A stretch of 47,058 nucleotides of DNA from an uncultured Planctomycetia bacterium. GTDB lineage: Bacteria > Omnitrophota > Gorgyraeia > JAGLLT01 > CAZKQD01. The notes beneath the pieces are model-generated. The model ran no database searches and was not told where the DNA came from. It saw only the letters and a list, made by a program, of their open reading frames with translations. The stretch is from contig CAZKQD010000003.1 in NCBI GenBank assembly GCA_964554835.1, positions 1 to 47,058 of the forward strand, read 5' to 3'. Position 1 is the stretch's first letter; each line of letters begins with the position of its first letter. This document shows, piece after piece, positions 7,372-36,029 of the stretch. The position numbers and the translations under genes were made by a program.

Positions 7372-7403
7372 ATAAATCACGCACTCATTAAGGGAGGTTG
7401 ATA

Positions 7404-20840: not shown

Positions 20841-22553
20841 TTGATTAATGATAGAAGATTAATTATAGAAAGTATAAAAAATACAGGTCTATTAGATGAT
20901 AGTCAGATAGAAAAGGCCCTGCAGATACAAAGTAAGAATAAACAGAGATTTGGCACTGTTTTGGCTCAATTGAGCTATATTGCCAACGAAGATACAGGGA
21001 TAAGTTTACCTTCTCAGATTGGTTTAGTGCCTGTGCCTATAGATAAAAAAAAGATTTCTGATGAAACCCTTAAAAGGATTTCCTCTAAGATTGCCTACCA
21101 CCACAGGATTATGCCTATCGAGTTAGAAGATAATATTCTCACCATTGCTACGGATGATCCTTTAAATTTTCTTGCCATGGAGAATTTAGAAAAGATTTTG
21201 GGAGTTAAATTAGAGATTATTCTTACTACTGAGGATGAGTTGATCTTGTTACAGAAACAACATTACGGAGAAAAGAAGGAAGAGAAAAAGGTCTTTGATA
21301 AAGTTATTGATAAGATGGAAATAGACAAAGAAATGCCCAGAGCAAAAGAGGAAACAGGGGGATTAACCGCTGATGGAGAAAGCGCTCCCATTATTAGATT
21401 AGTTACTTTGATTTTAACAGAAGGTGTGAAGAAACGAGCAAGTGATATTCATATTGAGCCCTTAGAGAAGAAACTCAGAGTTAGATATAGAATTGATGGT
21501 ATTCTGCATGAAGTTAGCGGTCCGCCAAAACATCTTCAGGGTTCAATAATAAGTAGAATAAAGTTGATGGCCGGACTTGATATTGCTGAGAAGCGTCTCC
21601 CTCAAGATGGGCGTATAAGGATAAAACTTTTAAATAAAGATTTAGACTTGAGAGTCTCAAGTTTACCTGGTATTTATGGCGAAAGCATTGTTATGAGAAT
21701 ACTGGATAAATCAAGTCTTCTATTGGGCCTTGAAGAATTAGGATTTTTATCTGATGACAGAAAGAAATTCGAGAAACTCATTAATACACCTAATGGGACT
21801 TTACTTGTTACAGGTCCTACAGGTTCAGGTAAGACGACTACACTATACGCAGCTTTAAATTCTATCAATCAACCCAATAAGAAATTAATCACTATTGAGG
21901 ATCCAGTTGAGTATCAGATAAAGGGCATAAATCAGGTCCAGATAAAACCTCAGGTTGGATTAAATTTTGCTGCAGGTCTACGCTCTATGTTACGACAAGC
22001 TCCTGATATTATAATGGTTGGTGAGATACGAGATAAAGAGACAGCTTCTGTTGCAATACAGGCGGCCTTAACCGGGCACTTAATTTTTTCAACCCTCCAC
22101 ACTAATGATGCACCTGGCGCTGTGACCAGATTGATAGATATGGGCATAAAGCCATACTTAGTTGCATCAACTCTCCAGGCCGTCTTAGCCCAAAGATTGG
22201 TTCGTTGCGTTTGTTCTAATTGCAGAGAACAATATCAACCTAAACCCGAAGAGTTAAATGCCTTGAATTTAAAAAAAGAAGACTTATCTGAGGCTACATT
22301 TTATAAAGGTAAAGGTTGCCCTGAGTGCAATGATAGTGGCTATAAGGGAAGAATTGGCATATTTGAACTTTTGATTATGGATGATACACTTAGAGAGATG
22401 ATATTTGAGAGAAAATCAAGTGCTGAGATAAAAACCAAAGCCGTTGAACTTGGAATGAAAACCTTAAGAGAAGATGGCAAACAAAAAGTATTAAAGGGCA
22501 TTACTACAATAGGAGAGGTAGTAAGGGTTGCTCAGCTTGAAGAAGAAATATAA
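20841..22553 (+). CDS. PilB/GspE-family assembly ATPase, paralog 1
   Basis: N-terminal T2SSE_N-like region, Walker A GPTGSGKTTT, IEDPVEY, Walker B PDIIMVGEIRD, His box GHLIFSTLHTNDA. Tetracysteine CSNC...CPEC. TTG start. Confidence 0.9.
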   Translation: MINDRRLIIESIKNTGLLDDSQIEKALQIQSKNKQRFGTVLAQLSYIANEDTGISLPSQIGLVPVPIDKKKISDETLKRISSKIAYHHRIMPIELEDNILTIATDDPLNFLAMENLEKILGVKLEIILTTEDELILLQKQHYGEKKEEKKVFDKVIDKMEIDKEMPRAKEETGGLTADGESAPIIRLVTLILTEGVKKRASDIHIEPLEKKLRVRYRIDGILHEVSGPPKHLQGSIISRIKLMAGLDIAEKRLPQDGRIRIKLLNKDLDLRVSSLPGIYGESIVMRILDKSSLLLGLEELGFLSDDRKKFEKLINTPNGTLLVTGPTGSGKTTTLYAALNSINQPNKKLITIEDPVEYQIKGINQVQIKPQVGLNFAAGLRSMLRQAPDIIMVGEIRDKETASVAIQAALTGHLIFSTLHTNDAPGAVTRLIDMGIKPYLVASTLQAVLAQRLVRCVCSNCREQYQPKPEELNALNLKKEDLSEATFYKGKGCPECNDSGYKGRIGIFELLIMDDTLREMIFERKSSAEIKTKAVELGMKTLREDGKQKVLKGITTIGEVVRVAQLEEEI

Positions 22554-22573
22554 AAAAAATTAAGGAGCAGATA

Positions 22574-23635
22574 ATGGCAGATATTAATGACTATTTAAAA
22601 GAATGCATAAAACAAAAAGCTTCAGATTTACATTTAACGGTAGGTAAGCCACCAATTTTAAGAATTGACGGAAGCCTTAAACCTTTAAATGATACAATAT
22701 TGAAGGAAGATGATTTAGTGGAAATTATGAAGCAGATTACAAATGATGAGAAAAGAAAAGAGATTGAAGAATCTGGCGGCTGTGATTTTGGTTTTAGTTT
22801 TGATAGTGTTGCAAGATTCAGAGCTTCAATTTATAAGGCAAAAGGTACGATTGGCATATCTCTCAGATTTATATCTTCAAAACTTTTTACTTTTGAAGAG
22901 TTAGGTTTATCGGAAAAAATCAGAGAGCTATTACATAGACCTCGAGGTTTGATTCTTGTTACAGGTCCAACAGGTTCAGGTAAGACGACTACCATAGCAA
23001 CTTTAACAGACTACATAAACTCTAATATGGGTTCTCATATAATTACAGTTGAGGATCCAATAGAATATTATCACAACCATAAAAAAAGTATCGTTACTCA
23101 GAGAGAAGTAGGAGTTGATGTTCCATCTTTCTCAGAGGCAATAATCAAAGGATTAAGAAGCGACCCGGATGTGATACTTGTTGGAGAAATGCGAGATTTA
23201 CAAACTATTAAAGCAGCGCTCCTCGCAGCAGAGACAGGACATTTGGTTTTTGCTACTTTACACACCATAAGTGCGGTTCAGACAGTTGATAGGATAATAA
23301 ATTCCTTTCCAGTTCATCAACAGGAGCAGGTAAGGATTCAGCTTTCAGCAGTTATTTTAGCAGTTTTATCTCAGCAGCTTTTAATCAGAAAATCTGACAA
23401 AGGAAGAGTAGCTTGCTTTGAGATTATGATATTAACTCCATCCATTCAAAGCCTAATTAGAGAAAGGAAAACTTTCAGGATAATCTCTGAACTTCAAACA
23501 GGTGCAAAATACGGTATGAGGACTTTTGATGCGTCATTAATTAAACTCTACCGAGACGGCGTAATATCAAAAGAGAGTGTATATAGCAAAGCTTTTGATA
23601 AGGAGCAGATTGAGCAGATGTTGAAAGGAAAATAG
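22574..23635 (+). CDS. pilT: Type IV pilus retraction ATPase PilT
   Basis: ASDLHLTVGKPPILRIDG, GPTGSGKTTT, VEDPIEY, DPDVILVGEMRD and GHLVFATLHT. 353 aa without the long N-terminal domain; the SIQSLIRERK block resembles the PilT signature. Confidence 0.9.
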   Translation: MADINDYLKECIKQKASDLHLTVGKPPILRIDGSLKPLNDTILKEDDLVEIMKQITNDEKRKEIEESGGCDFGFSFDSVARFRASIYKAKGTIGISLRFISSKLFTFEELGLSEKIRELLHRPRGLILVTGPTGSGKTTTIATLTDYINSNMGSHIITVEDPIEYYHNHKKSIVTQREVGVDVPSFSEAIIKGLRSDPDVILVGEMRDLQTIKAALLAAETGHLVFATLHTISAVQTVDRIINSFPVHQQEQVRIQLSAVILAVLSQQLLIRKSDKGRVACFEIMILTPSIQSLIRERKTFRIISELQTGAKYGMRTFDASLIKLYRDGVISKESVYSKAFDKEQIEQMLKGK

Positions 23636-23645
23636 GTAATTACTT

Positions 23646-25373
23646 ATGCCTGAAGGAAAATTTATTAAAAAACCTATAGGTGGAATACTACTAGACCAAA
23701 ACGTCATATCCCAAGAGCAGCTTGATGAAGCATTGGAAGAGCAGAAGAAAAGCGGTCGCCTCTTGGGAAAGATCCTTATTGATTTAGGTTTTGCAGCAGA
23801 AGAGGATATTTTAAAAGCTTTAGGTAGCCAGGTAGATATAAAGGTAAGCGAACTCAGTAAAATTGAGATTCCTAAGGAAATTATAGATAAAATTCCTGCC
23901 TCGTTAGCTCAAGTTTATAATATTGTTCCTGTAGAATTTACAAATGGCGTACTTACAATTGCATTATCTGATCCTTTAAATATAAACGTCTTAGATGATT
24001 TAAGGTTTGTCTTAAATTGTGAAGTTCAAAGTGTAGCAGCTAAAGAAGAAGACATTAGTAAAGCGATCGAGAAATACTATGGAGGAGAGGCCGGAGAAGG
24101 ATCTATAGATAAGTTAGTCAAAGAAATAGAAGAAAGTCAACCGAGGGTTTTAACTGCAGAGGTAAAAGAAAAACAAGATATTGCCAGCTTAAAAGAATTA
24201 GCATCTCAGGCACCAGTTGTAAAGCTGGTCAACTTAGTATTACTTCAGGCAGTAAAGGATAAAGCCAGCGATATACACTTTGAACCATTTGAGGATGAGT
24301 TTAAGGTAAGATATAGAGTGGACGGTGTCTTATATGAGATAAGTCATCCACCAAGGGAGTTAAACTTGGCAATAACATCAAGAATTAAAGTAATGGCTAA
24401 TTTAGACGTTGCTGAGTCTAGAGTGCCTCAAGATGGACGTATTATGATGAAAGTGGCTGGCCGAGCAATAGATTTACGCGTATCTACTCTTCCGACTATC
24501 TTTGGCGAAAGTGTAGTTATAAGGGTTTTAGATAGAAGCGTAATTAACCTATCCTTAGATGAAATAGGTCTTAGCCCAGAATTAAAAGAAAAAGTTGAAA
24601 AATTGGTATCTAAACCAAATGGTATAATTTTAGCAACAGGTCCTACCGGCTGCGGTAAGACTACAACTTTATATTCATGTTTGAGAAAGATAAATAAAAT
24701 AGATTACAAAATTATCACAACTGAAGACCCTGTAGAATATGATATTACAGGAATAGTTCAAGTAACTATCAGACCTAAGATAAATCTAACCTTCGCTACA
24801 TGCCTGAGACACATATTAAGACAGGATCCTGATATTATAATGGTCGGTGAGATACGAGACAAAGAGACAGCTCAAATTAGTGTTCAGGCTTCTTTAACAG
24901 GTCATTTGGTATTTAGCACACTTCATACTAATGATGCACCCGGCTCAATTACAAGATTAGTAGATATGGGAGTAGAACCCTTTTTAATTACCTCAACTCT
25001 TGAAGCAGTAATTGCACAAAGACTAGTGAGAGTATTGTGCCCTAAATGTAAAGAGCTTTATACTCCTTCGGAGCACGAGTTAGCTGAGATAGGATTAACG
25101 CCGGATAAAGCAAAGGATAAGAAGTTTTATAGAGCAAAAGGGTGCCCTGAATGCAATGATATTGGTTATAAAGGAAGAACTGCAATATTTGAAATTTTGA
25201 TAATAGGTAATAAATTAAAAAGTCTGATTATGGAGAAATCTCACACTGCAATTCTTAGAAGAGCAGCAATTAAATCTGGAATGCGCACTTTAAGAGAAAG
25301 CGGCTTACTTAAAGTTTACGATGGAATAACAACGATAGAAGAAATAGTAAGAGAAACTCGGGGATACGCTTAA
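23646..25373 (+). CDS. PilB/GspE-family assembly ATPase, paralog 2
   Basis: Same motif set as paralog 1 (GPTGCGKTTT, TEDPVEY, PDIIMVGEIRD, GHLVFSTLHTNDA, CPKC...CPEC). The N-terminus has two tandem 24-residue MshEN-like repeats. Confidence 0.9.
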   Translation: MPEGKFIKKPIGGILLDQNVISQEQLDEALEEQKKSGRLLGKILIDLGFAAEEDILKALGSQVDIKVSELSKIEIPKEIIDKIPASLAQVYNIVPVEFTNGVLTIALSDPLNINVLDDLRFVLNCEVQSVAAKEEDISKAIEKYYGGEAGEGSIDKLVKEIEESQPRVLTAEVKEKQDIASLKELASQAPVVKLVNLVLLQAVKDKASDIHFEPFEDEFKVRYRVDGVLYEISHPPRELNLAITSRIKVMANLDVAESRVPQDGRIMMKVAGRAIDLRVSTLPTIFGESVVIRVLDRSVINLSLDEIGLSPELKEKVEKLVSKPNGIILATGPTGCGKTTTLYSCLRKINKIDYKIITTEDPVEYDITGIVQVTIRPKINLTFATCLRHILRQDPDIIMVGEIRDKETAQISVQASLTGHLVFSTLHTNDAPGSITRLVDMGVEPFLITSTLEAVIAQRLVRVLCPKCKELYTPSEHELAEIGLTPDKAKDKKFYRAKGCPECNDIGYKGRTAIFEILIIGNKLKSLIMEKSHTAILRRAAIKSGMRTLRESGLLKVYDGITTIEEIVRETRGYA

Positions 25374-25374
25374 T

Positions 25375-25450
25375 CAGAAGACAGAAGACAGAGGACAGAA
25401 TATAAATAAGAGTAAATCTGTTTTCTGATTTCTGACATCTGATTTCTGAT
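25375..25450 (+). terminator. Heptad-repeat hairpin after ATPase paralog 2
   Basis: cagaaga cagaaga cagagga cagaa (25375-25400), 16-nt loop, then tctgttt tctgatt tctgaca tctgatt tctgat (25417-25450). The arms pair with several G:U wobbles that would be C:A mismatches on the minus strand. Confidence 0.5.
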
Positions 25451-25470
25451 TAAAAAGAGGAGGATAGACA

Positions 25471-26757
25471 TTGCTGAAATTTGAATATAAAGCTATAGAT
25501 GCAAACGGCAAAGAGGTATCAGGAATTATTGAAGCCGATAGCACACAGGATGCTATTACAAAAGTTAAAAGTAAGGGATATTATCCCATTGAGCTTAACG
25601 AGATAGAAGCTGAAAGACAAGCGCCGATCTCAACAAAGAAAAAGAATAAAGAGACTAAAAAGAGGGGCAGCCTAAACAAAGAAATAACTATTCCTTTCTT
25701 GGGAATCGGCGTAGTTAAATCTCAGGACGTGGCAATCTTTACCAGACAACTTGCTACTATGATAAATGCAGGGCTACCTTTAGTGAGAAGTCTCAATGTA
25801 TTATGTGAACAGTTACGATCAGGGCCCCTAAAAGACATAATAGTTTCTTTATTAGACGAGGTTACTGCGGGTGGTTCCTTAAGTGAGGCCTTATCCAAAT
25901 ATCCTAAAGTTTTCTCACCCTTATATATAAATATGGTAAGAGCTGGTGAATCAGGAGGAGTTTTAGAGATAATTTTAGAAAGATTAGCTAATTTTATTGA
26001 GAAGAACTTAGAACTAATCCGAAAGGTTAAATCCGCCCTTACATATCCTGCTTTAGTTGTGATATTTGCTGGTGGCGTTCTTATATTTTTGACAGTATTC
26101 CTTATTCCTAAGTTTATGGGAATTTTTCAAACTATGGAAATCGGAAAATTACCTGCCGTTACTTCATTTATTTTAAACTTTTCTCAGCTATTTCAGCACA
26201 AGTGGTATATTGGACTTGGACTTTTAGCAATTTTATATTTCGGATATAAAGCAGCTATTAAATCTAAAAAGTCTAGATTGTTTATAGATAGGATAAAATT
26301 ACGTTTGCCCATTATAGGTGAACTGTTGCTAAAAATTGAAGTTACTAGGTTTACCAGAACATTAGGCACTCTTATATCAAGTGGCGTTCCAATCTTGCAG
26401 GCTTTAAGGATTGTAAAAGGCGTTGTTAAAAATGAGGTTATATCACGAGCTATTGCTCAAGTACATGATAGTATCAGAGAAGGTGAATCTATAGCCAGAC
26501 CTCTTAAGGCAAGCGGTGTTTTCCCGCTTATGGTAGTCAATATGGTTGATGTAGGAGAAGAGACTGGTTCATTAGATAGTATGTTTATGAAAGTTGCTGA
26601 TATATATGATAGCGAGGTAGACACTACAATAAATTCTCTTACCTCAATAATAGAACCTATATTAATTATCACAATGGGGCTTATGGTAGGTTTTATCGTG
26701 ATAGCTATGTTCTTGCCGCTTATCAAACTAATGACTACAATTGGCTTGAGTAGCTAA
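25471..26757 (+). CDS. pilC: PilC/GspF-family inner-membrane platform protein
   Basis: Two T2SSF-type repeats (FTRQLATMINAGLPLVRSL and FTRTLGTLISSGVPILQAL). TTG start 8 nt after AGGAGG. Confidence 0.9.
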   Translation: MLKFEYKAIDANGKEVSGIIEADSTQDAITKVKSKGYYPIELNEIEAERQAPISTKKKNKETKKRGSLNKEITIPFLGIGVVKSQDVAIFTRQLATMINAGLPLVRSLNVLCEQLRSGPLKDIIVSLLDEVTAGGSLSEALSKYPKVFSPLYINMVRAGESGGVLEIILERLANFIEKNLELIRKVKSALTYPALVVIFAGGVLIFLTVFLIPKFMGIFQTMEIGKLPAVTSFILNFSQLFQHKWYIGLGLLAILYFGYKAAIKSKKSRLFIDRIKLRLPIIGELLLKIEVTRFTRTLGTLISSGVPILQALRIVKGVVKNEVISRAIAQVHDSIREGESIARPLKASGVFPLMVVNMVDVGEETGSLDSMFMKVADIYDSEVDTTINSLTSIIEPILIITMGLMVGFIVIAMFLPLIKLMTTIGLSS

Positions 26758-26759
26758 AT

Positions 26760-26789
26760 TTGAATAGGTTATGAAAATTGTGGTATAAT
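26760..26789 (+). promoter_or_regulatory. Sigma-70-type promoter with extended -10 upstream of the major pseudopilin gene
   Basis: TTGAAT (26760-26765), 18-nt spacer ending TGG, then TATAAT (26784-26789), i.e. TGnTATAAT. Confidence 0.6.
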
Positions 26790-26801
26790 ATAAATAGAAA
26801 A

Positions 26802-26864
26802 AAGTCCGAAGTTATAAACTGCAAGCTTAAAACCTAAAACTTGAAACCTGAAGCTTGAAACTTA
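26802..26864 (+). repeat. Nine degenerate heptads forming most of the pseudopilin 5' UTR
   Basis: aagtccg aagttat aaactgc aagctta aaaccta aaacttg aaacctg aagcttg aaactta. CAAGCTT (26822-26828) and AAGCTTG (26851-26857) can pair. The SD AGGAGG follows. Confidence 0.55.
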
Positions 26865-26883
26865 TAGCAGGAGGTAAGAAGAT

Positions 26884-27333
26884 ATGAAAAATAAAGGGTT
26901 TACTCTTATTGAGATTATGATAGTTTTAGTAATTATTGGTATCTTGATGGGTTTAATCTCTGCAGCAGCTTTTAAAGCAATGGAGTCAGCCAAAAAAAGC
27001 AGGGCAGAGGTCGATATAGCAACATTAGAAACTGCCTTATCTGCCTATGAAGCAGATATAGGAGATTATCCGCCGTCGGCTGCTTTTGCAGATAATTCAT
27101 TCAAGGCTTGGTTGGAGGATTCAAGTGGTCAGCCATCAAGTTGGAATGGCCCTTATATGCATTTTAAAAATGAGGATTTAACATCAGGAAGCGACCCTGT
27201 TTGTGATCCATGGAATAATGCATATAAATATAAAGCCCCTGGTTCTAATAATTCTGGATTTGTAGATATTTATTCATTTGGGCCTGATGGCAGTAATAAT
27301 GGCGGTGCCGGTGACGATATAAAGAACTGGTAA
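26884..27333 (+). CDS. gspG: GspG-type major pseudopilin
   Basis: Prepilin leader MKNKG|FTLIEIMIV with Glu at +5. The C-terminal block DPWNNAYKYKAPG...YSFGPDGSNNGGAGDDIKNW closely follows the T2SS GspG pattern. Confidence 0.85.
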   Translation: MKNKGFTLIEIMIVLVIIGILMGLISAAAFKAMESAKKSRAEVDIATLETALSAYEADIGDYPPSAAFADNSFKAWLEDSSGQPSSWNGPYMHFKNEDLTSGSDPVCDPWNNAYKYKAPGSNNSGFVDIYSFGPDGSNNGGAGDDIKNW

Positions 27334-27338
27334 CGAAA

Positions 27339-27917
27339 ATGCAACGATTCAATATAGAAAAGAGCAAAAATTGTATAGCTTTTACCCCATTAGAAATAGA
27401 ACGCAAACGCAAGCGTTCGCGATTTCTAACGGGGTTTACACTTATTGAAATGTTGGTAGTGCTTATTATTATTAGCATTATTACCGCGGCAACATTGCCT
27501 TATTTTTTCAGCTTCTATACAGGCCAGGAACTTAAAACTTCTGCAAGAGTTGTAGCTTCAGTGTTGCGCACTGCTAAAAGTTATGCAACAACTAAAAATA
27601 CAGATTGCTGGGTCGAATTCACGCCCTCAACCAATAAATTGGAAATAGCTATCTATCATGCAGATGTCTTTGATGAAGATGGTGATGGCAATACTACTGA
27701 ATCAGTCCAGCAAGGCAAAACAGAAAAACTAGAGCTTGCAACTGGGGTTGTGTTTAGTACCAGCTTTACAAATGATAAGGTGACTTTTACTCCTCAAGGC
27801 ACATGTAATGGAGGAACTGTTGAGATAACAAATACTTCGAAAAGTAAGGAAGTTGATATATCAGTTTCTCCGGTTACAGCAAGGGTGAGTATCTCAGATA
27901 TAGAACCTCCTGATTGA
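27339..27917 (+). CDS. Prepilin-type minor pseudopilin (GspH/FimT-like) with unusually long leader
   Basis: G|FTLIEMLVVLIII cleavage/methylation motif preceded by a 32-residue leader. There is no alternative start codon between the palindrome and the motif. ELKTSARVVASVLRTAKSYA is GspH-like. Confidence 0.7.
   Translation: MQRFNIEKSKNCIAFTPLEIERKRKRSRFLTGFTLIEMLVVLIIISIITAATLPYFFSFYTGQELKTSARVVASVLRTAKSYATTKNTDCWVEFTPSTNKLEIAIYHADVFDEDGDGNTTESVQQGKTEKLELATGVVFSTSFTNDKVTFTPQGTCNGGTVEITNTSKSKEVDISVSPVTARVSISDIEPPD
27385..27434 (+). promoter_or_regulatory. ~50-nt imperfect palindrome inside the leader-coding region of the second pseudopilin gene
   Basis: CCCC-A-TTAGAAAT-A-GAACGC / loop AAACGCAA / GCGTTC-GCG-ATTTCTAA-C-GGGG, giving about 18 paired positions. 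Located about 50 nt after the gspG stop. Confidence 0.5.
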
Positions 27918-27958
27918 TTGATGTATGATGTTGTATTTTTAAAATAGGAGTATTAAAA

Positions 27959-28351
27959 ATGATAAGAAAACTAAAGAAAGCAAGAGGTTTTACCCTGTTA
28001 GAAATTGTTATAGCTTTGGCTATATTTACTATTGGATTAGTTGGTCTTTTAAGTTTATTTCCTGTGGCTTTTCAGTCTTCAAAAAGAGCTACTGATTTAA
28101 CAGAAGCCACTATATATGCTCAGGAGATTATTGAAGATTTGAAAAGACAAGGATATGATAACATTACAGATGGAACAACAACAGATAATTCTATTTCAGG
28201 GACGTCTCGTTTTACTTATGATAAAATTGTAACTTCAGGCGGCAGTTTACCCTCTGGACTTAGAAAGATTAGTATTACCATGAAGTGGACAGAAGGAGGA
28301 AAGATCTACGATGAAGATTTTGTTACCTATATGGCCGACCTTACGCCGTAA
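27959..28351 (+). CDS. Prepilin-type minor pseudopilin (GspI-like)
   Basis: KARG|FTLLEIVIALAIFTIGLVGLL N-terminus. 130 aa, the small size typical of GspI/PilV-type proteins. Confidence 0.7.
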   Translation: MIRKLKKARGFTLLEIVIALAIFTIGLVGLLSLFPVAFQSSKRATDLTEATIYAQEIIEDLKRQGYDNITDGTTTDNSISGTSRFTYDKIVTSGGSLPSGLRKISITMKWTEGGKIYDEDFVTYMADLTP

Positions 28352-28934
28352 TAAGGGCTTTACAATTATTGAACTTTTAGTAGCTTCTGTTATATTGGTT
28401 ATCTTGTTTGGCAGCATAACAGCGGTTTTTTTAGCGGCTAATCGTTCATGGACTCAAACTGAGGCAAGACTGCAGATATATCAAAATGCAAGAGAGGCCT
28501 TAGATACAATGTCAAGAGAGCTAACAACTGCTTTTCAGCCTTCAAATCCCTCCTTGCAGAAATTCGACTGGGATACCACTCCTGATCCTGGCGAATTACA
28601 TTTTACAGCTTCTTATAATTTTAATCCTGAGTCGGGCGAGTATGACCTGTGTCATTTAGGATATCGACAGGATAATTCTAATAATGAAATAGAGAGATAT
28701 AAAGAAGATTATGGTAATCCTGGTGGTAGCTGGATGCCAATAGCTGAGCATATAACAAGTTTGAGTTTTGAGTATTATGACGGTCCAAGTTCAAGTTGGG
28801 TTTCGGTTTGGGATAATACCGCTAAAGATTATTTACCCAAAGCAGTTAGAATTACTATTCAAGTTCAGGATAAACAGGAAAGATACGAACCCAAAACATT
28901 CCAGAATATAATTTATCTGCCGGCGAGTCAATAA
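28311..28934 (+). CDS. Prepilin-type minor pseudopilin (GspJ/PilW-like)
   Basis: RNKG|FTIIELLVASVILVILFG, then the RSWTQTEARLQIYQNAREALDTMSRELTTAF block typical of GspJ-like proteins. The ATG at 28311 overlaps the upstream gene by 41 nt, so the exact start is uncertain. Confidence 0.65.
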   Translation: MKILLPIWPTLRRNKGFTIIELLVASVILVILFGSITAVFLAANRSWTQTEARLQIYQNAREALDTMSRELTTAFQPSNPSLQKFDWDTTPDPGELHFTASYNFNPESGEYDLCHLGYRQDNSNNEIERYKEDYGNPGGSWMPIAEHITSLSFEYYDGPSSSWVSVWDNTAKDYLPKAVRITIQVQDKQERYEPKTFQNIIYLPASQ

Positions 28935-28986
28935 TGAATTTTTGCAGATGCCTTGCAAGGGCATTTAGAGGAAATTTAGATAATGC

Positions 28987-29014
28987 TTGAATTTTTTAAA
29001 TAAAAGTGTATAAT
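28987..29014 (+). promoter_or_regulatory. Sigma-70-type promoter upstream of the pilM-pilN fusion gene
   Basis: TTGAAT (28987-28992), 16-nt spacer, TATAAT (29009-29014). A short hairpin ATGCC..GGCAT (28948-28964) precedes it. Confidence 0.5.
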
Positions 29015-29061
29015 AATTTAATAATTTTTTAGAAAAAAAGCAAAAAAATATAGTTAAAATT

Positions 29062-30699
29062 ATGATAAAAAATCTAATTGGTTTAGATATAGGATCAGAT
29101 TCTATAAAACTGGTAAAGCTAAAGAAAGTAAAAGGTAAGATTGAATTAGAAAAAGCCAGGGCCGTAGAACTGAAAGAAGTCAAGTCTATTAAGCAGGGCG
29201 TAGCCAGTCTTTTGAGAAGTGAGAAAATAAGCTCCTGCAAGGCCGCTATTTCTATTTCTGGTCAGTCTGTATTTACACGTTTTGTAAAATTACCTAAAAT
29301 CTCTCAGAAGAAAGTTGAACAAGTTGTAAAATATGAAGCCCAACAGCAGATTCCCTTTCCTATAGAAAAAGTAGTTTGGGATTATCAATTATTTGAAAAT
29401 AGTAAGACATCTGAGGTAGAGATTTGTCTTGCTGCAGTTAAGAAGGAAATTGTAGATAGTCTCTATAATGAACTTTCGCAACTAAAAATAAATATTATCT
29501 CTATACAGCCTTCTCCTATAGCCTTATATAACATGCTGAAATTTAACGAGGATGTAAAAGATAACACTATTGTTTTAGATATAGGAGCAAAGGTTACCGA
29601 TGTCTTTATAACAAAAGGAAGAAGAGTCTGGATAAGAAGCATTCCTATTGCTGGTAAAGAGATAACCCGTGCCATAAGTGGAAAGTTAGATATTGGCATT
29701 AAGGAAGCAGAGGTCTTGAAGCAGAGAGAGGGAATTACTTTAGTAGGCGCCACTGGAGATGAAAATTTAACTCCTCGTTCAGACGCTATCTCAAAAGCCA
29801 TAAATCCTGTCTTAGCCGATCTTCTAAAAGAGATATCGCGCTCCGTCAATTATTATAAATCACAATTTGACAGAGAAGCAGTCTGTGAGAGTGTTTTACT
29901 TACCGGAGGAAGCTCAAATATAAAATACATTGAAAAGTTCTTTGAAAATAATTTAAAAATTAAAACTCAGAAACCCAACCTGCTTAAGAAAATTACCCCT
30001 AATAAATTTACCAAAGCTACACTGGATGAAACAGAAGGTCAATGGGCAGTAGCTTTAGGCTTAGGCCTAAAGGCAGTTATAGAACCCACCATCAATATAA
30101 ATCTTTTGTCTAAAGAACTGAAGAAGTTTAAAAAATTTGACAGTAAAAAACCTTATATATTTGCTTCTGAAGTTACAGCTATTTTAATATTTCTTATATT
30201 ATCATCCTTCTGCATAAACAACATCAACGCCAATAAGAAAAACTTATCTTTAATAAAGGATAAAATGGACTATTTCCGCAAAAACAGCCAGATTATAGAC
30301 AGCATCCAGTCTGATATAAGCGGTTTAAAAAATAGGTTGGATTTTTTAACCAAAATAAATAGAAGTAAACAGTTCTGGTTAGATATCTTAGCTGAAGTAA
30401 ATAGCAAGATTCCTAAAGAAACTTGGCTTATAAGTTTTAGGTCTGATGATGAGAGCGACAAAACAGTTATAATCGAGGGGAAGACTGTCGGTTCATTCGA
30501 TTCTGTTAAGAACTTAAGAGAGAGTTTAAAGAAATCTGAATATTTTATAAATGTTGAAACTTTAAGAGCCGACCCAGCAGCCAAAGAAGAAGGTAAAGAA
30601 GCAAAGCCAGATTGTAATATTATATTTACAATGAAATTAGAGCTAGCTGAGGAAATTCCTTTAGTGTTAAATGATAAAGAAACTGGCAAAACCAAATGA
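29062..30699 (+). CDS. PilM-PilN fusion protein (GspL-like architecture)
   Basis: N-terminal actin-like PilM part (GLDIGSDSIKLVKL, VKLPKISQKKVEQVVKYEAQQQIPFP, VLDIGAKVTDV, LLTGGSSNI). This is followed by ININLL (the PilN N-terminal peptide motif), one TM helix (VTAILIFLILSSFCI) and a PilN-like periplasmic domain. Confidence 0.75.
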   Translation: MIKNLIGLDIGSDSIKLVKLKKVKGKIELEKARAVELKEVKSIKQGVASLLRSEKISSCKAAISISGQSVFTRFVKLPKISQKKVEQVVKYEAQQQIPFPIEKVVWDYQLFENSKTSEVEICLAAVKKEIVDSLYNELSQLKINIISIQPSPIALYNMLKFNEDVKDNTIVLDIGAKVTDVFITKGRRVWIRSIPIAGKEITRAISGKLDIGIKEAEVLKQREGITLVGATGDENLTPRSDAISKAINPVLADLLKEISRSVNYYKSQFDREAVCESVLLTGGSSNIKYIEKFFENNLKIKTQKPNLLKKITPNKFTKATLDETEGQWAVALGLGLKAVIEPTININLLSKELKKFKKFDSKKPYIFASEVTAILIFLILSSFCINNINANKKNLSLIKDKMDYFRKNSQIIDSIQSDISGLKNRLDFLTKINRSKQFWLDILAEVNSKIPKETWLISFRSDDESDKTVIIEGKTVGSFDSVKNLRESLKKSEYFINVETLRADPAAKEEGKEAKPDCNIIFTMKLELAEEIPLVLNDKETGKTK

Positions 30700-31490
30700 A
30701 ATTTTATAAGGTATTCTTAAAAAAGAACTTAGTTAGTCTTATAGCAATAGCAGTTCTATTTCTAGGAATTGTTGCCTCGGGTATATTTTTTGTTTCTAAC
30801 CTAAGAGAAGAGAATGCTATTGAGGAGAAGATAAATTCAGAACTAAAAATATTTAATCTTTTTAAAGGCAAGGAAGAATATGTGCCGACTACTTCTTGGA
30901 TCCAATACAGCGAGAAAGAGAAAGAGGAGCTCAAAAGCATATATGATAAAATAATGAAAGAATTGGATGCGCCGTCTGCAAGAATGCCGGATGAGGTTAG
31001 AGAACCTTTAAAATTTAAAGAAGAAATTTTTAATGTACAAGATGAGCTACAACAGCAAGCTATATCAAAAGGTTTAACGTTTGATAAAGAAGCTCAATCT
31101 CTGGGTTTTAAAGAATATGAGAAGAAGATTCCAGCTGAAGAGGAAATACCCAATTTAACTGAAAAACTACTAATTGCTGAAGAATTAGTTAACTTAATGT
31201 TTAACAGTAACATAGATAAACTAACAAACATCAAATTTTCAGATTGTAAAGATAATACTCTTGATGGCGAAAGCTCACTATCCTACAGAGTTACTCCGAT
31301 AGAATTAAAGATTACCTCATCAGTGAAAGAGTTGGCGCATTTTCTTTATTTTTTATCTGAGTCTGAGTATATTTTTGTGGTTAATAGTGTTAATATCAGT
31401 TCATCGATAGATGAAAAAGATAAAGTTCAAGCTTATTTGGATATATCTTCTATTGTATTTCTGGAGAAGAAGGCAAAAAAAGAAAAATGA
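30696..31490 (+). CDS. PilO/GspM-like bitopic alignment protein
   Basis: N-terminal TM helix, coiled-coil region, and C-terminal block YRVTPIELKITSSVKELAHFLYFLSESEYIFVVNSVNISS resembling PilO. ATGA overlap with the upstream gene. Confidence 0.55.
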   Translation: MKFYKVFLKKNLVSLIAIAVLFLGIVASGIFFVSNLREENAIEEKINSELKIFNLFKGKEEYVPTTSWIQYSEKEKEELKSIYDKIMKELDAPSARMPDEVREPLKFKEEIFNVQDELQQQAISKGLTFDKEAQSLGFKEYEKKIPAEEEIPNLTEKLLIAEELVNLMFNSNIDKLTNIKFSDCKDNTLDGESSLSYRVTPIELKITSSVKELAHFLYFLSESEYIFVVNSVNISSSIDEKDKVQAYLDISSIVFLEKKAKKEK

Positions 31491-32176
31491 TAATAAAAAA
31501 AAATCTCCTTATAGATCATTTAGAGAAAGTAGCGCTGGGTCTTTTAGTAATTTTATTACTGGCCATTGCAGCGCTTTATGCAAGTAGAATTATTTTTAAA
31601 GAGCTGGATATAAAAAATAAACTTTCATCAGTTAAATTTTCTGAACCACCTGAAGCCATTAAAGGACTTGATAAATACAAAAAGGCCCTTAAAGAGCTGC
31701 AGAGTGAGAAAAAATTTACAAGTTATCAAGCCGATTTTAGCAGAAATAGTTTTTCTAAATATGTGAAAATAGAACCTCCAAAACCATTATTTGAGTTAAG
31801 ATCTATTGGAAGGCTTCCTTTAAATATACAATATAATGGATTCATTGAGTATAGTGGTGGCATAATTGGTCAGATTAATCTAAAAGGGACTACGTATTTT
31901 GTAAAAGAAAATGCAGAATTGATAGAGTATAAAACACTTGAACTTCATAGAAAATATGCTGTTCTTGAAGATAGTAAGGGTAACAAAATAAAACTGCCCC
32001 TGAGAGAACAGGTTTTATCTGATGAATATGAGGCCATAGTCTATCTAACTCGTGAAGATAAAACAACTAAGGTGAGAAAAGGTGATAAAATTAAAAATTT
32101 TCAAGTACTTGACATTTTACCCACTTATGTGGTATTATTTAACGAAACTACTAAAGAAAAGAAGCTTCTGAGATAG
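31487..32176 (+). CDS. Membrane-anchored beta-rich protein, possible PilP/GspC-like component
   Basis: N-terminal TM helix (VALGLLVILLLAIAALYA). C-terminal beta-rich segment ending KVRKGDKIKNFQVLDILPTYVVLFNETT. The call rests on position and overall shape only. Confidence 0.35.
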   Translation: MIIKKNLLIDHLEKVALGLLVILLLAIAALYASRIIFKELDIKNKLSSVKFSEPPEAIKGLDKYKKALKELQSEKKFTSYQADFSRNSFSKYVKIEPPKPLFELRSIGRLPLNIQYNGFIEYSGGIIGQINLKGTTYFVKENAELIEYKTLELHRKYAVLEDSKGNKIKLPLREQVLSDEYEAIVYLTREDKTTKVRKGDKIKNFQVLDILPTYVVLFNETTKEKKLLR

Positions 32177-32191
32177 GTGAGTGAAGGCTTA

Positions 32192-32219
32192 GATTTATGG
32201 AACGAAGTAAACATAAATC
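32192..32219. repeat. GAACGAA-loop hairpin (H1 type)
   Basis: GATTTATG / loop GAACGAAGTAAA / CATAAATC. A related copy lies at 40131-40154 and an inverted copy at 1335-1366. Confidence 0.6.
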
Positions 32220-32233
32220 TTTAGCCGAATTCA

Positions 32234-32258
32234 CCCTTGACATCTAAGATGTCAAGGG
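32234..32258 (+). terminator. Intrinsic-terminator-like hairpin after the PilP-like gene
   Basis: CCCTTGACATC / TAA / GATGTCAAGGG, a perfect 11-bp stem followed by TTTAATT. Confidence 0.55.
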
Positions 32259-32276
32259 TTTAATTCACGCATACGA

Positions 32277-32301
32277 TTTAGTTTCATTATCACTCACTAA
32301 A
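32277..32301 (+). repeat. TCACTC-loop hairpin (H3 type) in the leader of the TPR/N0 gene
   Basis: TTTAGT / loop TTCATTATCACTC / ACTAAA. The counterpart at 40327-40351 has an 11/13 identical loop and compensatory stem changes. It ends 32 nt before the ATG. Confidence 0.6.
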
Positions 32302-32333
32302 GCGTGCGTTCATTTAAAAAGGAGAGATTTAAT

Positions 32334-33419
32334 ATGTCTAGATGGTATAAGTTAAGCAGTGTTATTGTGATTATAAGTTTTTTATTCACAGTTGGTTATT
32401 GCAATTCATCTTATGGTGAAAGTAGATTAAGAGTCCGCAGTTTAGCTGAAGAAATAGCGAAACAGAAACGGCTTGAGCAGGAAGAGATAGAAATCCTGGT
32501 AGAAGAGCGTACTCAACGTGGAATAGAAAGCTATAAGAAAGGTGACTATGCTGAGGCAATAAGACAGCTAACAGCAGTTTTAGAATTAAATCCAGATTAT
32601 AAGGAAGCAGAAAAATATCTAAATTTAGCCCGGGGTAACCTGCTTGATTCTGCTGAGAAGCACTATACCAAAGGTGTAGAATACTACAAAAACGGAGATT
32701 TTGTTAATGCAGTAAATGAATTAAATCAGATTCCTGAAGATAATCGTTACTATGAAGAAGCTCGAGAATATGTTAAAGCTGCTAGGAAGACATTAAAGAC
32801 AGCCGAAATTCCTGAACCCTCAAGTCCAGATTTTGAGAAAAAAGATGTTGAGAGAGAACTTAAAAATTTGGAAAAAGAACAAGAATTGGTGTTGCTTAAA
32901 AAGCAAGCTCAGGAAAAAAGAATGATGCTTGATGTGGAAAGAGCTTATTTGTTGCCAGAAAGGTTAAAGGAAAAGAAAGAAGAAGCGAAAGTAACTGCCG
33001 AAGAAATCGCAGCGAAGAAAAAAGAAAAAAGACAAAGAGAACTAATTGAGAAAATGAATCAAAATGTTGTTCCTGCTTTAAGTTTAAGTGATGCCAATAT
33101 TCAAGATGTAATAAGAGAACTTATGAAAATGACTGGCGCAACTATTATATTAGATGAAGGCGCCTTAAAGAGAGTAGCTGAAGATAAACCCATAAAAGTC
33201 TCATTTACTACAGTAACCTCTATGCCTCTTTTGGATTTGCTTGAGATAGCATTGAAGACTACTGAATTAGCATATAAAGTAGAGTCAAATTATATATGGA
33301 TCTCTGATGAAAAGACATTGTCAAAAGAGAAATTAATCACCAAAACCTATAGGTTAAAACACGGCGCAAGAAGAACACGCGAAGTATCATTAGTTGAATT
33401 TGGCAAAGAAGAGGATTAA
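32334..33419 (+). CDS. Membrane-anchored TPR/coiled-coil protein with C-terminal secretin N0 (STN)-like domain
   Basis: Start set at the ATG at 32334, after AAGGAGAG. TPR-like repeats (YKKGDYAEAIRQLTAVLELNPDY, YYKNGDFVNAVNELNQIPED) precede a K/E-rich coil. The C-terminus (LSLSDANIQDVIRELMKMTGATIILDEGAL...KVSFTTVTSMPLLDLLEIALKTTELAYKVESNYIWISD) reads like a secretin/TonB N0 domain. Confidence 0.6.
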   Translation: MSRWYKLSSVIVIISFLFTVGYCNSSYGESRLRVRSLAEEIAKQKRLEQEEIEILVEERTQRGIESYKKGDYAEAIRQLTAVLELNPDYKEAEKYLNLARGNLLDSAEKHYTKGVEYYKNGDFVNAVNELNQIPEDNRYYEEAREYVKAARKTLKTAEIPEPSSPDFEKKDVERELKNLEKEQELVLLKKQAQEKRMMLDVERAYLLPERLKEKKEEAKVTAEEIAAKKKEKRQRELIEKMNQNVVPALSLSDANIQDVIRELMKMTGATIILDEGALKRVAEDKPIKVSFTTVTSMPLLDLLEIALKTTELAYKVESNYIWISDEKTLSKEKLITKTYRLKHGARRTREVSLVEFGKEED

Positions 33420-33430
33420 CGCAGAAAGAA

Positions 33431-34522
33431 ATGAAAAAAAATATTTTATATATAGTTATTTTATTGGCTTTCTGTTTAAGTTCTCCTTTAAATTTAGATG
33501 CTCAAGACACAATAAGCATCAAGGAATACTTAAAGCAGATACTTCCGCCTCAAGAAGGAAGAAAGATTTTTTTAGATCCGACTACTGGTTTATTAACTAT
33601 AACTGATATTCCTTCCAATCATAAATTAATTAAGGAGTTAATAGAGGCCTTTGATATAGGAATCCCTCAAGTTATGATAGAGGTTAAATTTATTGAAGTT
33701 ACCATGACTGATATAGGTGAACTTGGAATTGAATGGTACTGGTATGATCAGGATAATGTAGGTAATGCAGCCGGATATGCTGACTATGTCCCTGGCCAGC
33801 AAGATACCGGTGATGGAATATTGTGGGGCAGAGAAAATGCAGCAGGAACTTATGAAAGTTTTCCGCATACAGGACATGGTTTTGATTTTTATATAGGTAA
33901 GGCTGATACCACAGGAGGCTATATTAGAGCTTATTTGCATGCTTTAGAAGAAAAAGGTAAAGCTAATCTTTTATCAGCTCCGAAAGTAACCACCCTTTCA
34001 GGTCAAATGGCTAATATGGAGGTAACTAAAACATTTCCCTACGTAAGCAATGTGGAATTAGAAAACCGTGGTACTGCAGAATATCCTATATGGGTTCTTA
34101 CACAAACCTATGAAGAGAAGACTATAGGAATTTCACTCGAGGTTACGCCTCGCGTAGCAGCACAAAGTAGATTTATAACTTTAGATCTTCATCCAGTGGT
34201 AGATGTGTTAGTAGCACAACGGTCTATCAAGCCTACTGCAGCCAGCGCAAGTTATCCTACAGTTCCAAGTGCTGTTGGTTGGCCAGTGATAGATACCCGT
34301 TCAACTCAAACCTCTATTGTAACAAAAAGTGGAGAGACAATAGTTTTAGGTGGACTTATTAAAGAGGATGAGAAAACATACACAAGAAAGGTTCCTGTTT
34401 TAGGTGATATCCCCTTATTAGGTAATCTATTCAAATATAAACATATAAATAAGGAAAAAAAGAGTCTTTTAATTTTTATTACTGCTACTTTAATAACGGC
34501 AGATGGTGAGAAATTAAGATGA
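33431..34522 (+). CDS. Short secretin, paralog 1 (363 aa)
   Basis: Signal peptide (LNLDA|QD) and one N-domain (GLLTITDIPSNHKLIKELIEAFD). Secretin core motifs: QVMIEVKFIEV, ANLLSAPKVTTLSGQMANMEV, ETIVLGGLIKEDEKTYTRKVPVLGDIPLLGNLFKYK, SLLIFITATLI. Confidence 0.85.
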   Translation: MKKNILYIVILLAFCLSSPLNLDAQDTISIKEYLKQILPPQEGRKIFLDPTTGLLTITDIPSNHKLIKELIEAFDIGIPQVMIEVKFIEVTMTDIGELGIEWYWYDQDNVGNAAGYADYVPGQQDTGDGILWGRENAAGTYESFPHTGHGFDFYIGKADTTGGYIRAYLHALEEKGKANLLSAPKVTTLSGQMANMEVTKTFPYVSNVELENRGTAEYPIWVLTQTYEEKTIGISLEVTPRVAAQSRFITLDLHPVVDVLVAQRSIKPTAASASYPTVPSAVGWPVIDTRSTQTSIVTKSGETIVLGGLIKEDEKTYTRKVPVLGDIPLLGNLFKYKHINKEKKSLLIFITATLITADGEKLR

Positions 34523-35658
34523 GGTTAAATTTTAAGATTTTATTCATAGTGCTGTTTTGTCCACTGCTATTTTTTAACAGTAGTTTTGCTCAAGATGGCC
34601 AGACTATTAAGGAATATCTTCAGCAAGTGCTTCCATCCCAGGAAGGAAGAAAAATTGTCTTAGATGAGACTACCGGGCTGCTAACCGTAACCGATACTCC
34701 CTCAAATCATAAATTAATTATGAAATTGATTGAAGTTTGGGATGTCGGTCCGCAACAGGTACGGATTGAGGCGCGGTTTGTGGAGATAGAAGAGAAGGCA
34801 TTACATGAAGTTGGCGTGGAGTGGTTAGCAAAAAAGACCGGTGACTATATATATTATGGCGAGGGTCCCCTGAGAAGTGCGGCAAGGAGCGCTAGTAATA
34901 CACCCGCTGAGCAACCTGCCAATTACCAAAACATAGAGCCGGGTTCGAGCGTTGTAGGTGAGTATAACTACAGTACTAGTAGAGCTATTCCTCCTTGGAG
35001 TGGTTCTGAAATGGGAGCTCCTCAAGAATTTGGAGGATTAGGTCTTTGGGTAGGAGACACTAATGTGGATGGGACTAAGCTCTTCGCCTATTTAAAAGCT
35101 CTTGAAGGGCAAGATAAAGCTAATCTTTTATCAGCTCCTATAATAACTACTTTATCAGGACAAATGGCTAATATTGAGTTAGCTAATGTTATACCTTATG
35201 CTTGTGGATACGAACAGACTGATACTGGTACCGGGGCATATGGTTATTATGAAACCTATGAGATAGAGGAAAAGAAAACAGGTATTTTTTTAGAGGTAAC
35301 TCCAACTGTTAGCAGAGGGCAAAAAATGATAACACTTGAATTACATCCTTCAGTAAGTGAAATTAGTTATCAGGTTGCAATTACTAATAGTAGCGAATTT
35401 CCAAGTTATTTAGGCTGGCCGGTGGTTGAAACCCGAAGTACTCAAACTTCAGTAATTGTAAGAAGCGGCCAGACAATTGCAATAGGTGGCTTAATAAGAG
35501 ATGATGAATCAACCACAAAACGTAAAGTTCCAATAGTAGGAAATATTCCTTTGCTCGGCAATCTCTTTAAATGGGAGCATACAAGCCGGACTAAGAGAAA
35601 TCTGGTTATATTCTTAACCGCGACTATAATAACACCCGAGGGCGAGGAGATTAAATGA
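34519..35658 (+). CDS. Short secretin, paralog 2 (379 aa)
   Basis: Same architecture and motif set as paralog 1 (QVRIEARFVEI, ANLLSAPIITTLSGQMANIEL, QTIAIGGLIRDDESTTKRKVPIVGNIPLLGNLFKWE, NLVIFLTATII). ATGA overlap with paralog 1. Confidence 0.85.
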   Translation: MRLNFKILFIVLFCPLLFFNSSFAQDGQTIKEYLQQVLPSQEGRKIVLDETTGLLTVTDTPSNHKLIMKLIEVWDVGPQQVRIEARFVEIEEKALHEVGVEWLAKKTGDYIYYGEGPLRSAARSASNTPAEQPANYQNIEPGSSVVGEYNYSTSRAIPPWSGSEMGAPQEFGGLGLWVGDTNVDGTKLFAYLKALEGQDKANLLSAPIITTLSGQMANIELANVIPYACGYEQTDTGTGAYGYYETYEIEEKKTGIFLEVTPTVSRGQKMITLELHPSVSEISYQVAITNSSEFPSYLGWPVVETRSTQTSVIVRSGQTIAIGGLIRDDESTTKRKVPIVGNIPLLGNLFKWEHTSRTKRNLVIFLTATIITPEGEEIK

Positions 35659-35967: not shown

Positions 35968-36029
35968 GGCACATCTTTAAAACAATCCCTTTTTGATTAA
36001 TTTATCCAAAAAAATTTAGATTATTGTGT

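Follow-up and report, generated by a model that had tools for sequence, protein, structure and literature searches.

Three consecutive genes of a type IV pilus-like cluster, carried by a 47,058-nt stretch of DNA from an uncultured bacterium of the Omnitrophota lineage (contig CAZKQD010000003.1; hereafter the window), probably encode a single secretin in pieces. Type II and type III secretion, type IV pili, competence and the export of filamentous phage all rely on secretins as gates in the outer membrane. A secretin is regarded as a homo-oligomer of a single chain, whose N0 domain couples the pore to the inner-membrane platform. In the proposed history of the trio, a secretin gene underwent fission in a loop of its N3-like domain, the half encoding the pore was duplicated (secretins A and B), and the other half became a TPR-coil-N0 protein which would dock in trans by a C-terminal tail strand. 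The sequences show which domains the three proteins contain, their homology to fused forms, the shared gene order, the degree of conservation and where the break falls. The order of events, binding of the separate pieces to each other, assembly of a ring and its contact with the platform are inferred.

The two downstream genes encode minimal secretins, as a sequence-only reading of the same DNA had described them: open reading frames (ORFs) of 363 and 379 amino acids (aa), each with a signal peptide, one N-domain and the secretin core. By Pfam, the core (Secretin, PF00263) occupies aa 171-355 of A (E 2e-43, 148.3 bits) and aa 194-371 of B (E 8.6e-43, 146.3 bits; cut-off 27.5). It is preceded by a Secretin_N match at aa 26-80 of A (30.9 bits) and aa 29-80 of B (35.6 bits; cut-off 28.2), while no N0, STN or AMIN domain was found in either protein at E<=1. 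The Secretin_N match is confined in both to positions 13-69 of the 69 in the hidden Markov model (HMM), the first strand of the domain being missing, and the ~25 residues before it are the signal peptide. Similarly, A and B align to solved secretins (GspD, PilQ, InvG and pIV chains) from N3 onwards only, for instance over residues 290-574 of E. coli GspD. Because both end within ~8 residues of the secretin domain, neither possesses an S-domain. None of the NCBIfam equivalog cut-offs was reached, the pair scoring 176/184 against 351 bits for GspD (TIGR02517), 155/148 against 284 for PilQ (TIGR02515) and 164/147 against 250 for MshL (TIGR02519); the SctC models score A and B lower than the GspD and PilQ models. 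Among the top 120 homologs of secretin A, which span 289-414 aa and all but one of which have 343-414 aa, every organism named belongs to the Omnitrophota/Omnitrophica.

The upstream gene encodes a 361-aa protein whose likeliest start is the ATG at 32334, which follows a good ribosome-binding site (RBS; aaaggagag); the GTG at 32304 given in the ORF list is less likely. Its close homologs (n=22, 356-458 aa) come from Omnitrophota metagenomes and are labelled only 'TPR repeat protein' or 'hypothetical'. An AlphaFold2 (AF2) model computed from the alignment of these 22 homologs, with a mean predicted local distance difference test score (pLDDT) of 75, begins with a hydrophobic helix and continues with a TPR block modeled with confidence, long helices reaching residue 242 and a compact alpha/beta domain at residues 250-331. 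The TPR region resembles both designed and natural TPR structures (PDB phmmer and Foldseek). This layout agrees with the TPR repeats, K/E-rich helix and C-terminal N0/STN domain that had been read from the sequence; the membrane anchor proposed at the same time is doubtful. In the family alignment, residues of the pattern small-x-small ([SA]-[YF]-[AGSC], then E/Q) are conserved after the hydrophobic stretch. This suggests that a signal peptide is probably cleaved off here and does not serve as an anchor, so that the protein would be soluble in the periplasm.

The N0/STN fold of the C-terminal domain is supported by structure prediction and by family-level profiles. With the window protein alone, the Pfam matches stay below threshold (STN, PF07660: E 0.014, aa 295-324, 15.7 bits against 28.4; GspD N0, PF21305: E 0.017, aa 250-275, 15.4 bits against 27), the two spanning the two halves of one domain. 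In the AF2 model, aa 250-331 adopt the order beta-alpha-beta-alpha-beta-alpha-beta-beta with a pLDDT of ~80. The top Foldseek hits of the model are the N0 domains of LspD, PilQ and GspD, the STN domains of FpvA/PupA and a FecR-like anti-sigma factor (probability 1.0, E 1e-3 to 5e-2), interleaved with TPR proteins matching its other half; GspD N0 superposes with a root-mean-square deviation of 2.1 Å over 86 columns. When the whole protein was compared with the PDB by phmmer, the matches were nearly exclusively TPR proteins, and N0 was not among them. The N0 signal emerged only once a family profile covering the C-terminal 176 residues was used, which returned six PDB sequences at E<=10, all of them N0 domains of GspD, XcpQ or LspD (best E 0.004). 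The domain also shares homology (E 1e-13 to 1e-18) with the N0 region found in single-chain proteins of the order TPR-STN-Secretin_N-Secretin, in some of which the STN match exceeds the Pfam cut-off (29.9 bits in P0179, 33.9 in P0231, 35.5 in P0201 and 33.1 in P0239). It is the best-conserved part of the protein, with a mean column conservation of 0.79 as compared with 0.75 for the tail, 0.59 for the TPR region and 0.58 for the coil. The STN/N0-like segment recognized from the sequence thus holds, its Pfam scores being sub-threshold yet the AF2/Foldseek comparison and the family profile against the PDB both giving N0.

The relationship with single-chain secretins has been explored by an exhaustive profile search with the N0 domain and tail, which recovered 411 proteins at E<=1e-3. 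Of the top 150 representatives (clusters at 50% identity), 35 possess a secretin core, 48 end in N0 plus tail, 34 contain at least three N0-like repeats and 33 are other or partial proteins. Fifteen fused proteins analyzed by Pfam are single chains of 687-893 aa with Secretin in 15/15, TPR and STN in 14/15 each (with different exceptions) and Secretin_N in 11/15; the fused proteins include one from Candidatus Auribacterota and one from Candidatus Omnitrophota. The NCBIfam Amuc_1098 model (NF042912) is collinear with the trio, its positions 216-370 matching aa 196-341 of the TPR-N0 protein (E 1e-6) and positions 579-804 both secretins. The scores of 27, 131 and 144 bits for the three proteins, against a cut-off of 750, make them relatives of this family rather than members as defined. 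In an Omnitrophota metagenome-assembled genome (MAG; locus L018), the gene of the fused protein P0179 (707 aa) lies between PilMN/Amuc_1100-like genes and polA-coaE-rho-rpmE-prfA, the chromosomal slot before polA that the split trio holds in the window and its relatives. Because a fused homolog sits in the same slot of another Omnitrophota MAG, the form found in the window is read as the product of gene fission. The simplest reading of these comparisons is the fission of a TPR-N0-N3-secretin gene and, then or alongside, the duplication of its pore half.

Two further observations were made on these sequences. The 34 representatives with repeated domains (252-1677 aa; P0156, P0157, P0167, P0170 and P0172 among them) have 3-5 tandem N0-like domains in a local re-search, without a secretin core; in the library search, up to 8 stretches were matched. 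In L018, the Amuc_1100-like gene (6732-7964) encodes 410 aa and no separate Amuc_1099-like gene was called; the two may be fused there.

Comparison with the fused proteins also locates the break. When N0 plus tail and mature secretin A were concatenated and aligned with 26 fused proteins, the tail motif (E-x-L-[IV]-T-[KR]-T-Y-[KR]-L-K-[YH]-G) and the sequence with which the mature secretin begins ([TS]-I-K-[ED]-Y-L...) coincided with two conserved blocks. In most fused proteins, these blocks are separated by a variable, low-complexity linker of ~20-90 residues, often acidic or Ser/Thr/Gly-rich. In five proteins without linker they abut, as in P0201 (LITKTYRPAGGISDVVDMLKK) and P0239 (QTRTYELPAGATHIVETLEAS), and the Secretin_N match of P0239 and P0291 starts at HMM position 8-9, just past the tail strand. 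The canonical secretin N-domain, as in the N1 and N2 structures of GspD, follows the order beta-alpha-beta-beta-alpha. On these alignments, the cut apparently lies in the beta1-alpha1 loop of the N3-like domain, and the ITKTYRL segment of the tail would be its missing first strand. The sequence-only reading had placed N0 and the TPR module on a polypeptide separate from the pore. The N0 fold, the fused homologs and the syntenic fused gene bear this out, with one refinement: the break falls not between domains but inside the N3-like domain, whose first strand was left on the TPR-N0 protein.

Modeling and profile scores have been used to examine the role of the tail. In the model of the TPR-N0 protein by itself, the last 30 residues have a pLDDT <50. 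In an AF2 model of a chimera joining aa 234-361 of the window protein (N0 and tail) to aa 26-363 of secretin A, computed from an alignment of natural fusions and unpaired homologs (mean pLDDT 83, predicted template modeling score 0.65), the ITKTYR segment becomes a strand with a pLDDT of ~94, followed by a low-confidence loop. The successive strands (E) and helices (H), E102-107, H133-140, E148-152, E157-162 and H164-177, reproduce the canonical beta-alpha-beta-beta-alpha order. Foldseek matched the chimera to whole secretins (V. cholerae PilQ, E 1.7e-18, BfpB, InvG and GspD) and, over 161-181 columns, to N0-N1 fragments of XcpQ, MxiD and GspD. Moreover, splicing 13 residues of the tail onto the N-domain of secretin A raised its Secretin_N score from 35.0 to 44.7 bits (+9.7) and widened the match to HMM positions 1-69, while 11 shuffled or reversed tails gave 34.2-36.3 bits and none widened the match further than HMM position 4.

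Several points weigh against this reading. The same splice gained only 2.4 bits for secretin B and nothing for the fused protein P0197, possibly through the join that was chosen. The partner of the tail strand was deduced from the order of secondary-structure elements and the change in pLDDT, not observed directly, and the chimera is covalent and was modeled with natural fusions in its alignment, both of which bias it toward a fused-like fold. The TPR-N0 protein of the window, taken alone, remains below the Pfam STN and N0 cut-offs. Regarding the platform partner of N0, which in known systems contacts the inner-membrane platform via GspC or PilP, no similarity to the PilP/GspC HR (homology region) was found in the 229-aa Amuc_1099-like protein with a ten-ortholog profile compared with the PDB and Pfam. 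With these points considered, docking in trans by strand complementation is likely, and aa 335-340 of the tail would pair with the sheet of the secretin N-domain; the support for this pairing is indirect and comes from the splice scores, the conservation of the tail and the abutting blocks of the linker-less fusions.

The following sequence of events is proposed. The ancestor, in this part of the Planctomycetes-Verrucomicrobia-Chlamydiae (PVC) group, would have been one chain comprising a signal peptide, in some cases AMIN, TPR repeats, a long helix, N0, an N3-like domain and the core. In the Omnitrophota lineage of the window, the gene would have split within the N3-like domain, in the loop joining strand beta1 to helix alpha1, at the site where many fused relatives hold their variable low-complexity linker, and the pore half would have acquired its own signal peptide and given rise, by duplication, to the paralogs A and B. 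The TPR-N0 protein and the secretins would then be exported separately by Sec, the former binding the N-domain of A, B or both by inserting ITKTYRL as the missing first strand. An N0-N3-core protomer would thereby be rebuilt, placing an N0 ring beneath the outer-membrane pore, where it could engage the type IV pilus-like machine at its PilMN/Amuc_1100/Amuc_1099 platform. As a speculation, the TPR modules and, in some relatives, the AMIN modules, which take the position of the peptidoglycan-binding AMIN of classical PilQ, may anchor or space the complex.

The opposite polarity, in which the split state would be ancestral and the 700-900-aa proteins gene fusions, fits the large number of split-type clusters (48 of the top 150 representatives) but is very unlikely. 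Canonical type II, type III, type IV pilus and phage secretins carry N0 and N-domains in one chain, the linker-less fused proteins have an ordinary contiguous N-domain, and a domain encoded across two genes is an unlikely starting point. In addition, fused forms occur in Verrucomicrobiota (NCBIfam Amuc_1098 model; PMC4960237), Auribacterota and Omnitrophota. We thus infer that the fused form came first.

The three-gene arrangement is conserved in relatives. Twenty related split loci were retrieved, 16 of them distinct after duplicate or near-identical sequences were dropped; 14 are close relatives, with TPR-N0 proteins 37-60% identical to that of the window, and two are distant. The order TPR-N0, secretin A, secretin B recurs in 15 of the 16, from different metagenomes, the contig of the sixteenth (L007) ending within secretin A; the short contig L019 stops directly after the TPR-N0 gene and is uninformative. 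PilMN, Amuc_1100-like and Amuc_1099-like genes recur upstream wherever the related contigs extend. The two distant members also precede two short secretins, one having AMIN before its TPRs and the other a supra-threshold STN. The AMIN domain, as in classical PilQ, belongs to the detached N-terminal part encoded at 4871-6526 of L021.

Since the arrangement recurs in other distinct loci, an error of assembly does not account for the trio. One might suspect a pseudogene, or a single secretin gene that was frameshifted or truncated, on a contig which has an in-frame TAG in polA, but this explanation is refuted by the comparative data: the same organization is found in loci from different samples, every part comes with a start, an RBS-like sequence and a signal peptide of its own, and all parts are well conserved at the protein level. 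The probability of an assembly or annotation artefact is thus practically nil. In particular, the short secretins are conserved with signal peptides of their own and are not products of 5'-truncation, an eventuality that the sequence-only reading had raised.

The function of the TPR module has to be considered separately. PilF, PilW and Tgl are TPR proteins that serve as pilotins of secretins, and the module had accordingly been called pilotin-like. Among the 22 homologs of the TPR-N0 protein, no conserved lipobox cysteine was found, and the NCBIfam scores are far below cut-off for PilW (25 against 154 bits, 1e-5) and Tgl (20 against 225 bits, 3e-4), with a weak match to BamD (0.017). Membership among pilotins of the PilF/PilW/Tgl type is rejected on both grounds. 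The TPR module is instead most likely the ancestral N-terminus of the secretins of this clade, not a recruited pilotin, as in Akkermansia Amuc_1098 (PMC4960237). A broader alternative, that the TPR-N0 protein helps transiently in assembly or targeting, as a pilotin or chaperone would, or acts as an adaptor to peptidoglycan or the platform, in contact with the secretins only while they are being built and not as a stoichiometric part of the pore, is rather improbable. It would accommodate the precedent of PilF, PilW and Tgl, the weak NCBIfam similarity to PilW, Tgl and BamD, and short secretins which lack an S-domain and have no other obvious pilotin nearby. However, these matches fall in generic TPR repeats, the TPRs are already within the secretin chain of the fused relatives, and the best-conserved parts of the protein are N0 and the tail, not the TPR region.

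The two pore paralogs raise the question of the composition of the ring. A and B are 45% identical overall and 73% in the N-domain. Their N-domains are 54-81% identical, as compared with 45-55% for the rest of the proteins, and the two differ by insertions between N-domain and core. Wherever both genes are present (15 loci), the best match of the first is A and that of the second is B, which makes the duplication an old one. Paired paralogs are present in every split locus, and the fused locus L018 has a single secretin. It is possible, if somewhat unlikely, that A and B co-assemble in one heteromeric ring whose N3-like domains are completed in trans by the strand of the TPR-coil-N0 subunit, itself forming the N0 ring. 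The translational coupling of A and B by an ATGA overlap, found in the window and several relatives, and the better-conserved N-domains fit such a mixed ring without showing it.

Alternatively, A and B may form two separate homo-oligomeric pores with different jobs, e.g., pilus extrusion as opposed to protein or DNA passage, the TPR-N0 subunit serving one or both. This tentative reading is compatible with the split-secretin explanation. All solved secretin rings known to us are homo-oligomers, two PilB/GspE-like ATPases are encoded in the cluster, and A and B are old paralogs distinguished by their insertions. The coupling of the two genes speaks against it, as do their constant association, solely where the gene is split, and the retention in both of the conserved N-domain that should take the tail.

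The split secretin closes a complete type IV pilus/type II secretion-like cluster (20841-35658) in a one-strand gene array of ~35% G+C, whose closest protein relatives, by their names, are Candidatus Omnitrophota/Omnitrophica MAGs. Housekeeping genes (SurA, PdxA, KsgA, GatA/B, TsaD and others) lie upstream, and polA, coaE and related genes downstream. Since its platform genes match the NCBIfam Amuc families, the cluster is, by sequence, the Omnitrophota counterpart of the Akkermansia Amuc_1098-1102 locus. Junctions are tight within the block, with an 11-nt spacer between the TPR-N0 gene and secretin A, the ATGA overlap of A and B, and a 6-nt spacer before the next gene. The latter encodes a ~100-aa exported protein with sub-threshold matches alone, to YbjQ_1 and to selenium-binding-protein-like families (Pfam, NCBIfam). 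It was found in 15/15 related loci whose contig reaches beyond secretin B and is absent from the fused locus L018; it could be an accessory or pilotin-like factor. The coordinates of all features are collected in Table 1.

Table 1. Features of the split-secretin cluster in the window.
Feature	Position	Strand	Evidence and remarks
Two PilB/GspE-like ATPases, PilT-like ATPase, PilC/GspF, four pseudopilins	20841..28934	+	Pfam T2SSE, MshEN, T2SSF, T2SSG, GspH, T2SSJ, N_methyl
Inner-membrane platform genes	29062..32176	+	Pfam and NCBIfam; syntenic in all related loci whose contig reaches upstream
PilM-PilN fusion	29062-30699	+	Pfam PilM_2 (1.2e-34) and PilN; NCBIfam Amuc_1101_fam (3.9e-91)
Amuc_1100-like	30696-31490	+	NCBIfam Amuc_1100_fam (1.4e-14)
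Amuc_1099-like	31487-32176	+	NCBIfam Amuc_1099_fam (5.6e-4)
TPR-coil-N0-tail protein, 361 aa, probable detached N-terminal half of secretin	32334..33419	+	ORF and RBS, homologs, AF2 model
Signal peptide or signal anchor, aa 1-30	32334..32423	+	Hydrophobic stretch, then conserved small-x-small motif
TPR region, aa 59-157, two TPR-like hairpins	32508..32804	+	Pfam TPR_2 (E 2.5e-8, 2 stretches); pLDDT >90
K/E-rich long helical segment, aa 158-245	32805..33068	+	AF2 helices aa 165-205 and 208-242; K/E richness judged by eye
Predicted N0/STN-fold domain, aa 246-331	33069..33326	+	AF2, Foldseek, family profile, conservation 0.79
C-terminal tail, aa 332-356, EKLITKTYRLKHGARRTREVSLVEF; proposed beta1 strand of N3-like domain	33327..33401	+	Conservation, chimera model, Secretin_N splice test
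Secretin A, 363 aa: signal peptide, alpha-beta-beta-alpha N3-like remnant, core	33431..34522	+	Pfam, NCBIfam, PDB secretins
Secretin B, 379 aa, paralog of A	34519..35658	+	Start overlaps stop of A (ATGA)
Exported protein, ~100 aa	35665..35967	+	Directly 3' of secretin B; signal peptide

Other observations concern the vicinity of the trio. A perfect hairpin (cccttgacatc-taa-gatgtcaaggg, ~32234-32258) lies inside the 157-bp gap (32177-32333) which precedes the TPR-N0 gene; it could be a terminator, an attenuator or a regulatory element dividing the cluster into two transcription units. The two PilB/GspE-like ATPases with MshEN (20841-22553 and 23646-25373) flank the PilT-like ATPase, a doubling of the motor that parallels the paired secretins. 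Further upstream, a 180-aa protein (17332-17874) unites a bactofilin domain with a C-terminal HTH_17 DNA-binding domain, a combination not known among characterized bactofilins. In split loci, one or two Peptidase_MA_2 genes (36024-36833 in the window) are located between the secretin block and polA; none is present in L018. In the window, polA is broken by a single in-frame TAG at 37498-37500 into a 5'-3' exonuclease part (36841-37500) and the remainder (37501-39501), while four relatives have a single gene of 888-902 aa. Because K or R occupies the TAG position in these relatives, an AAG to TAG change is plausible. Sequencing error, nonsense mutation or a true split between 5' nuclease and polymerase could each explain it.

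These findings bear on how secretins are built. A widespread variant, represented by at least 48 sequence clusters at 50% identity, parts N0 from the pore by cutting through a domain, and would constitute a natural experiment on how the N0 ring is attached and what it contributes. The minimal pore subunit, with ~340 mature residues, would also be a simple object for structural work. If the heteromeric ring proves true, it would be, to our knowledge, the first heteromeric secretin, together with a natural case of a domain split over two exported polypeptides. The Omnitrophota are ultra-small, possibly predatory or symbiotic bacteria, and surveys of this phylum score type IV pili by marker genes. 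Their pilus machinery may be miscounted because the short pores score below the PilQ and GspD cut-offs and the N0 partner is labelled 'TPR repeat protein' or 'hypothetical'. The counterpart cluster of Akkermansia, Amuc_1098-1102, holds the much-studied Amuc_1100 protein.

Among the closest known systems is this Akkermansia locus, in which Amuc_1098 has been described as an abundant outer-membrane PilQ of 907 residues with an N-terminal three-TPR domain (PMC4960237). The neighbourhood is that of the window, with the PilM-like Amuc_1101, Amuc_1100 and Amuc_1099 families followed by the secretin, and Amuc_1098 shares the domain order of the trio: N-terminal TPR, N0, N-domain and core. It is, however, one chain, covered by the 805-position NF042912 model, whereas the window has three genes, for one N-terminal part and two pore paralogs. 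The fused Omnitrophota and Auribacterota proteins (P0179, P0178 and 33 more representatives) are likewise homologous over N0, tail, N-domain and core, with ~30% identity to the concatenated window proteins, but are single genes, mostly holding a low-complexity linker where the gene of the window is cut.

Other systems share single traits. The TPR part recalls PilF, PilW and Tgl, which also consist of TPRs and are either encoded alongside type IV pilus secretins or required by them; these are outer-membrane lipoproteins without N0, whereas the window protein has N0 and no conserved lipobox. Short secretins of the order N0-N3-secretin, such as pIV of the filamentous phage f1 (Foldseek hit 7ofh), would share N0, a single N3-like domain and the core with the reassembled window secretin; pIV, however, is one chain devoid of any TPR or coil module. 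A division into two genes has been reported in Rhc-type type III secretion, where the secretin gene is split into RhcC1/NolW and RhcC2, with unknown significance (PMC3574062). This is an exception to the premise, adopted in the sequence-only reading, that N0 is always a covalent part of the secretin. As in the window, the N-terminal and C-terminal parts are separate ORFs conserved within a lineage. The Rhc genes nevertheless serve a type III secretion machine, stand apart in the cluster, sometimes widely, and encode an N-terminal part without TPR and a pore part that is not duplicated. The likeness is thus one of gene structure only, by analogy, the window cluster being type IV pilus/type II secretion-like (pseudopilins, PilM/N, PilB/T/C).

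No report of a secretin divided between genes in type IV pilus or type II secretion systems, or of any secretin in Omnitrophota, came up in a literature search of incomplete coverage, and the Omnitrophota genome papers examined discuss type IVa pili without mention of the secretin. Because the Rhc case is known, the division of a secretin into two genes is not new in kind. What look new are the break inside a domain, a detached part made up of TPR, coil and N0, and minimal pore paralogs that come as an obligatory pair.

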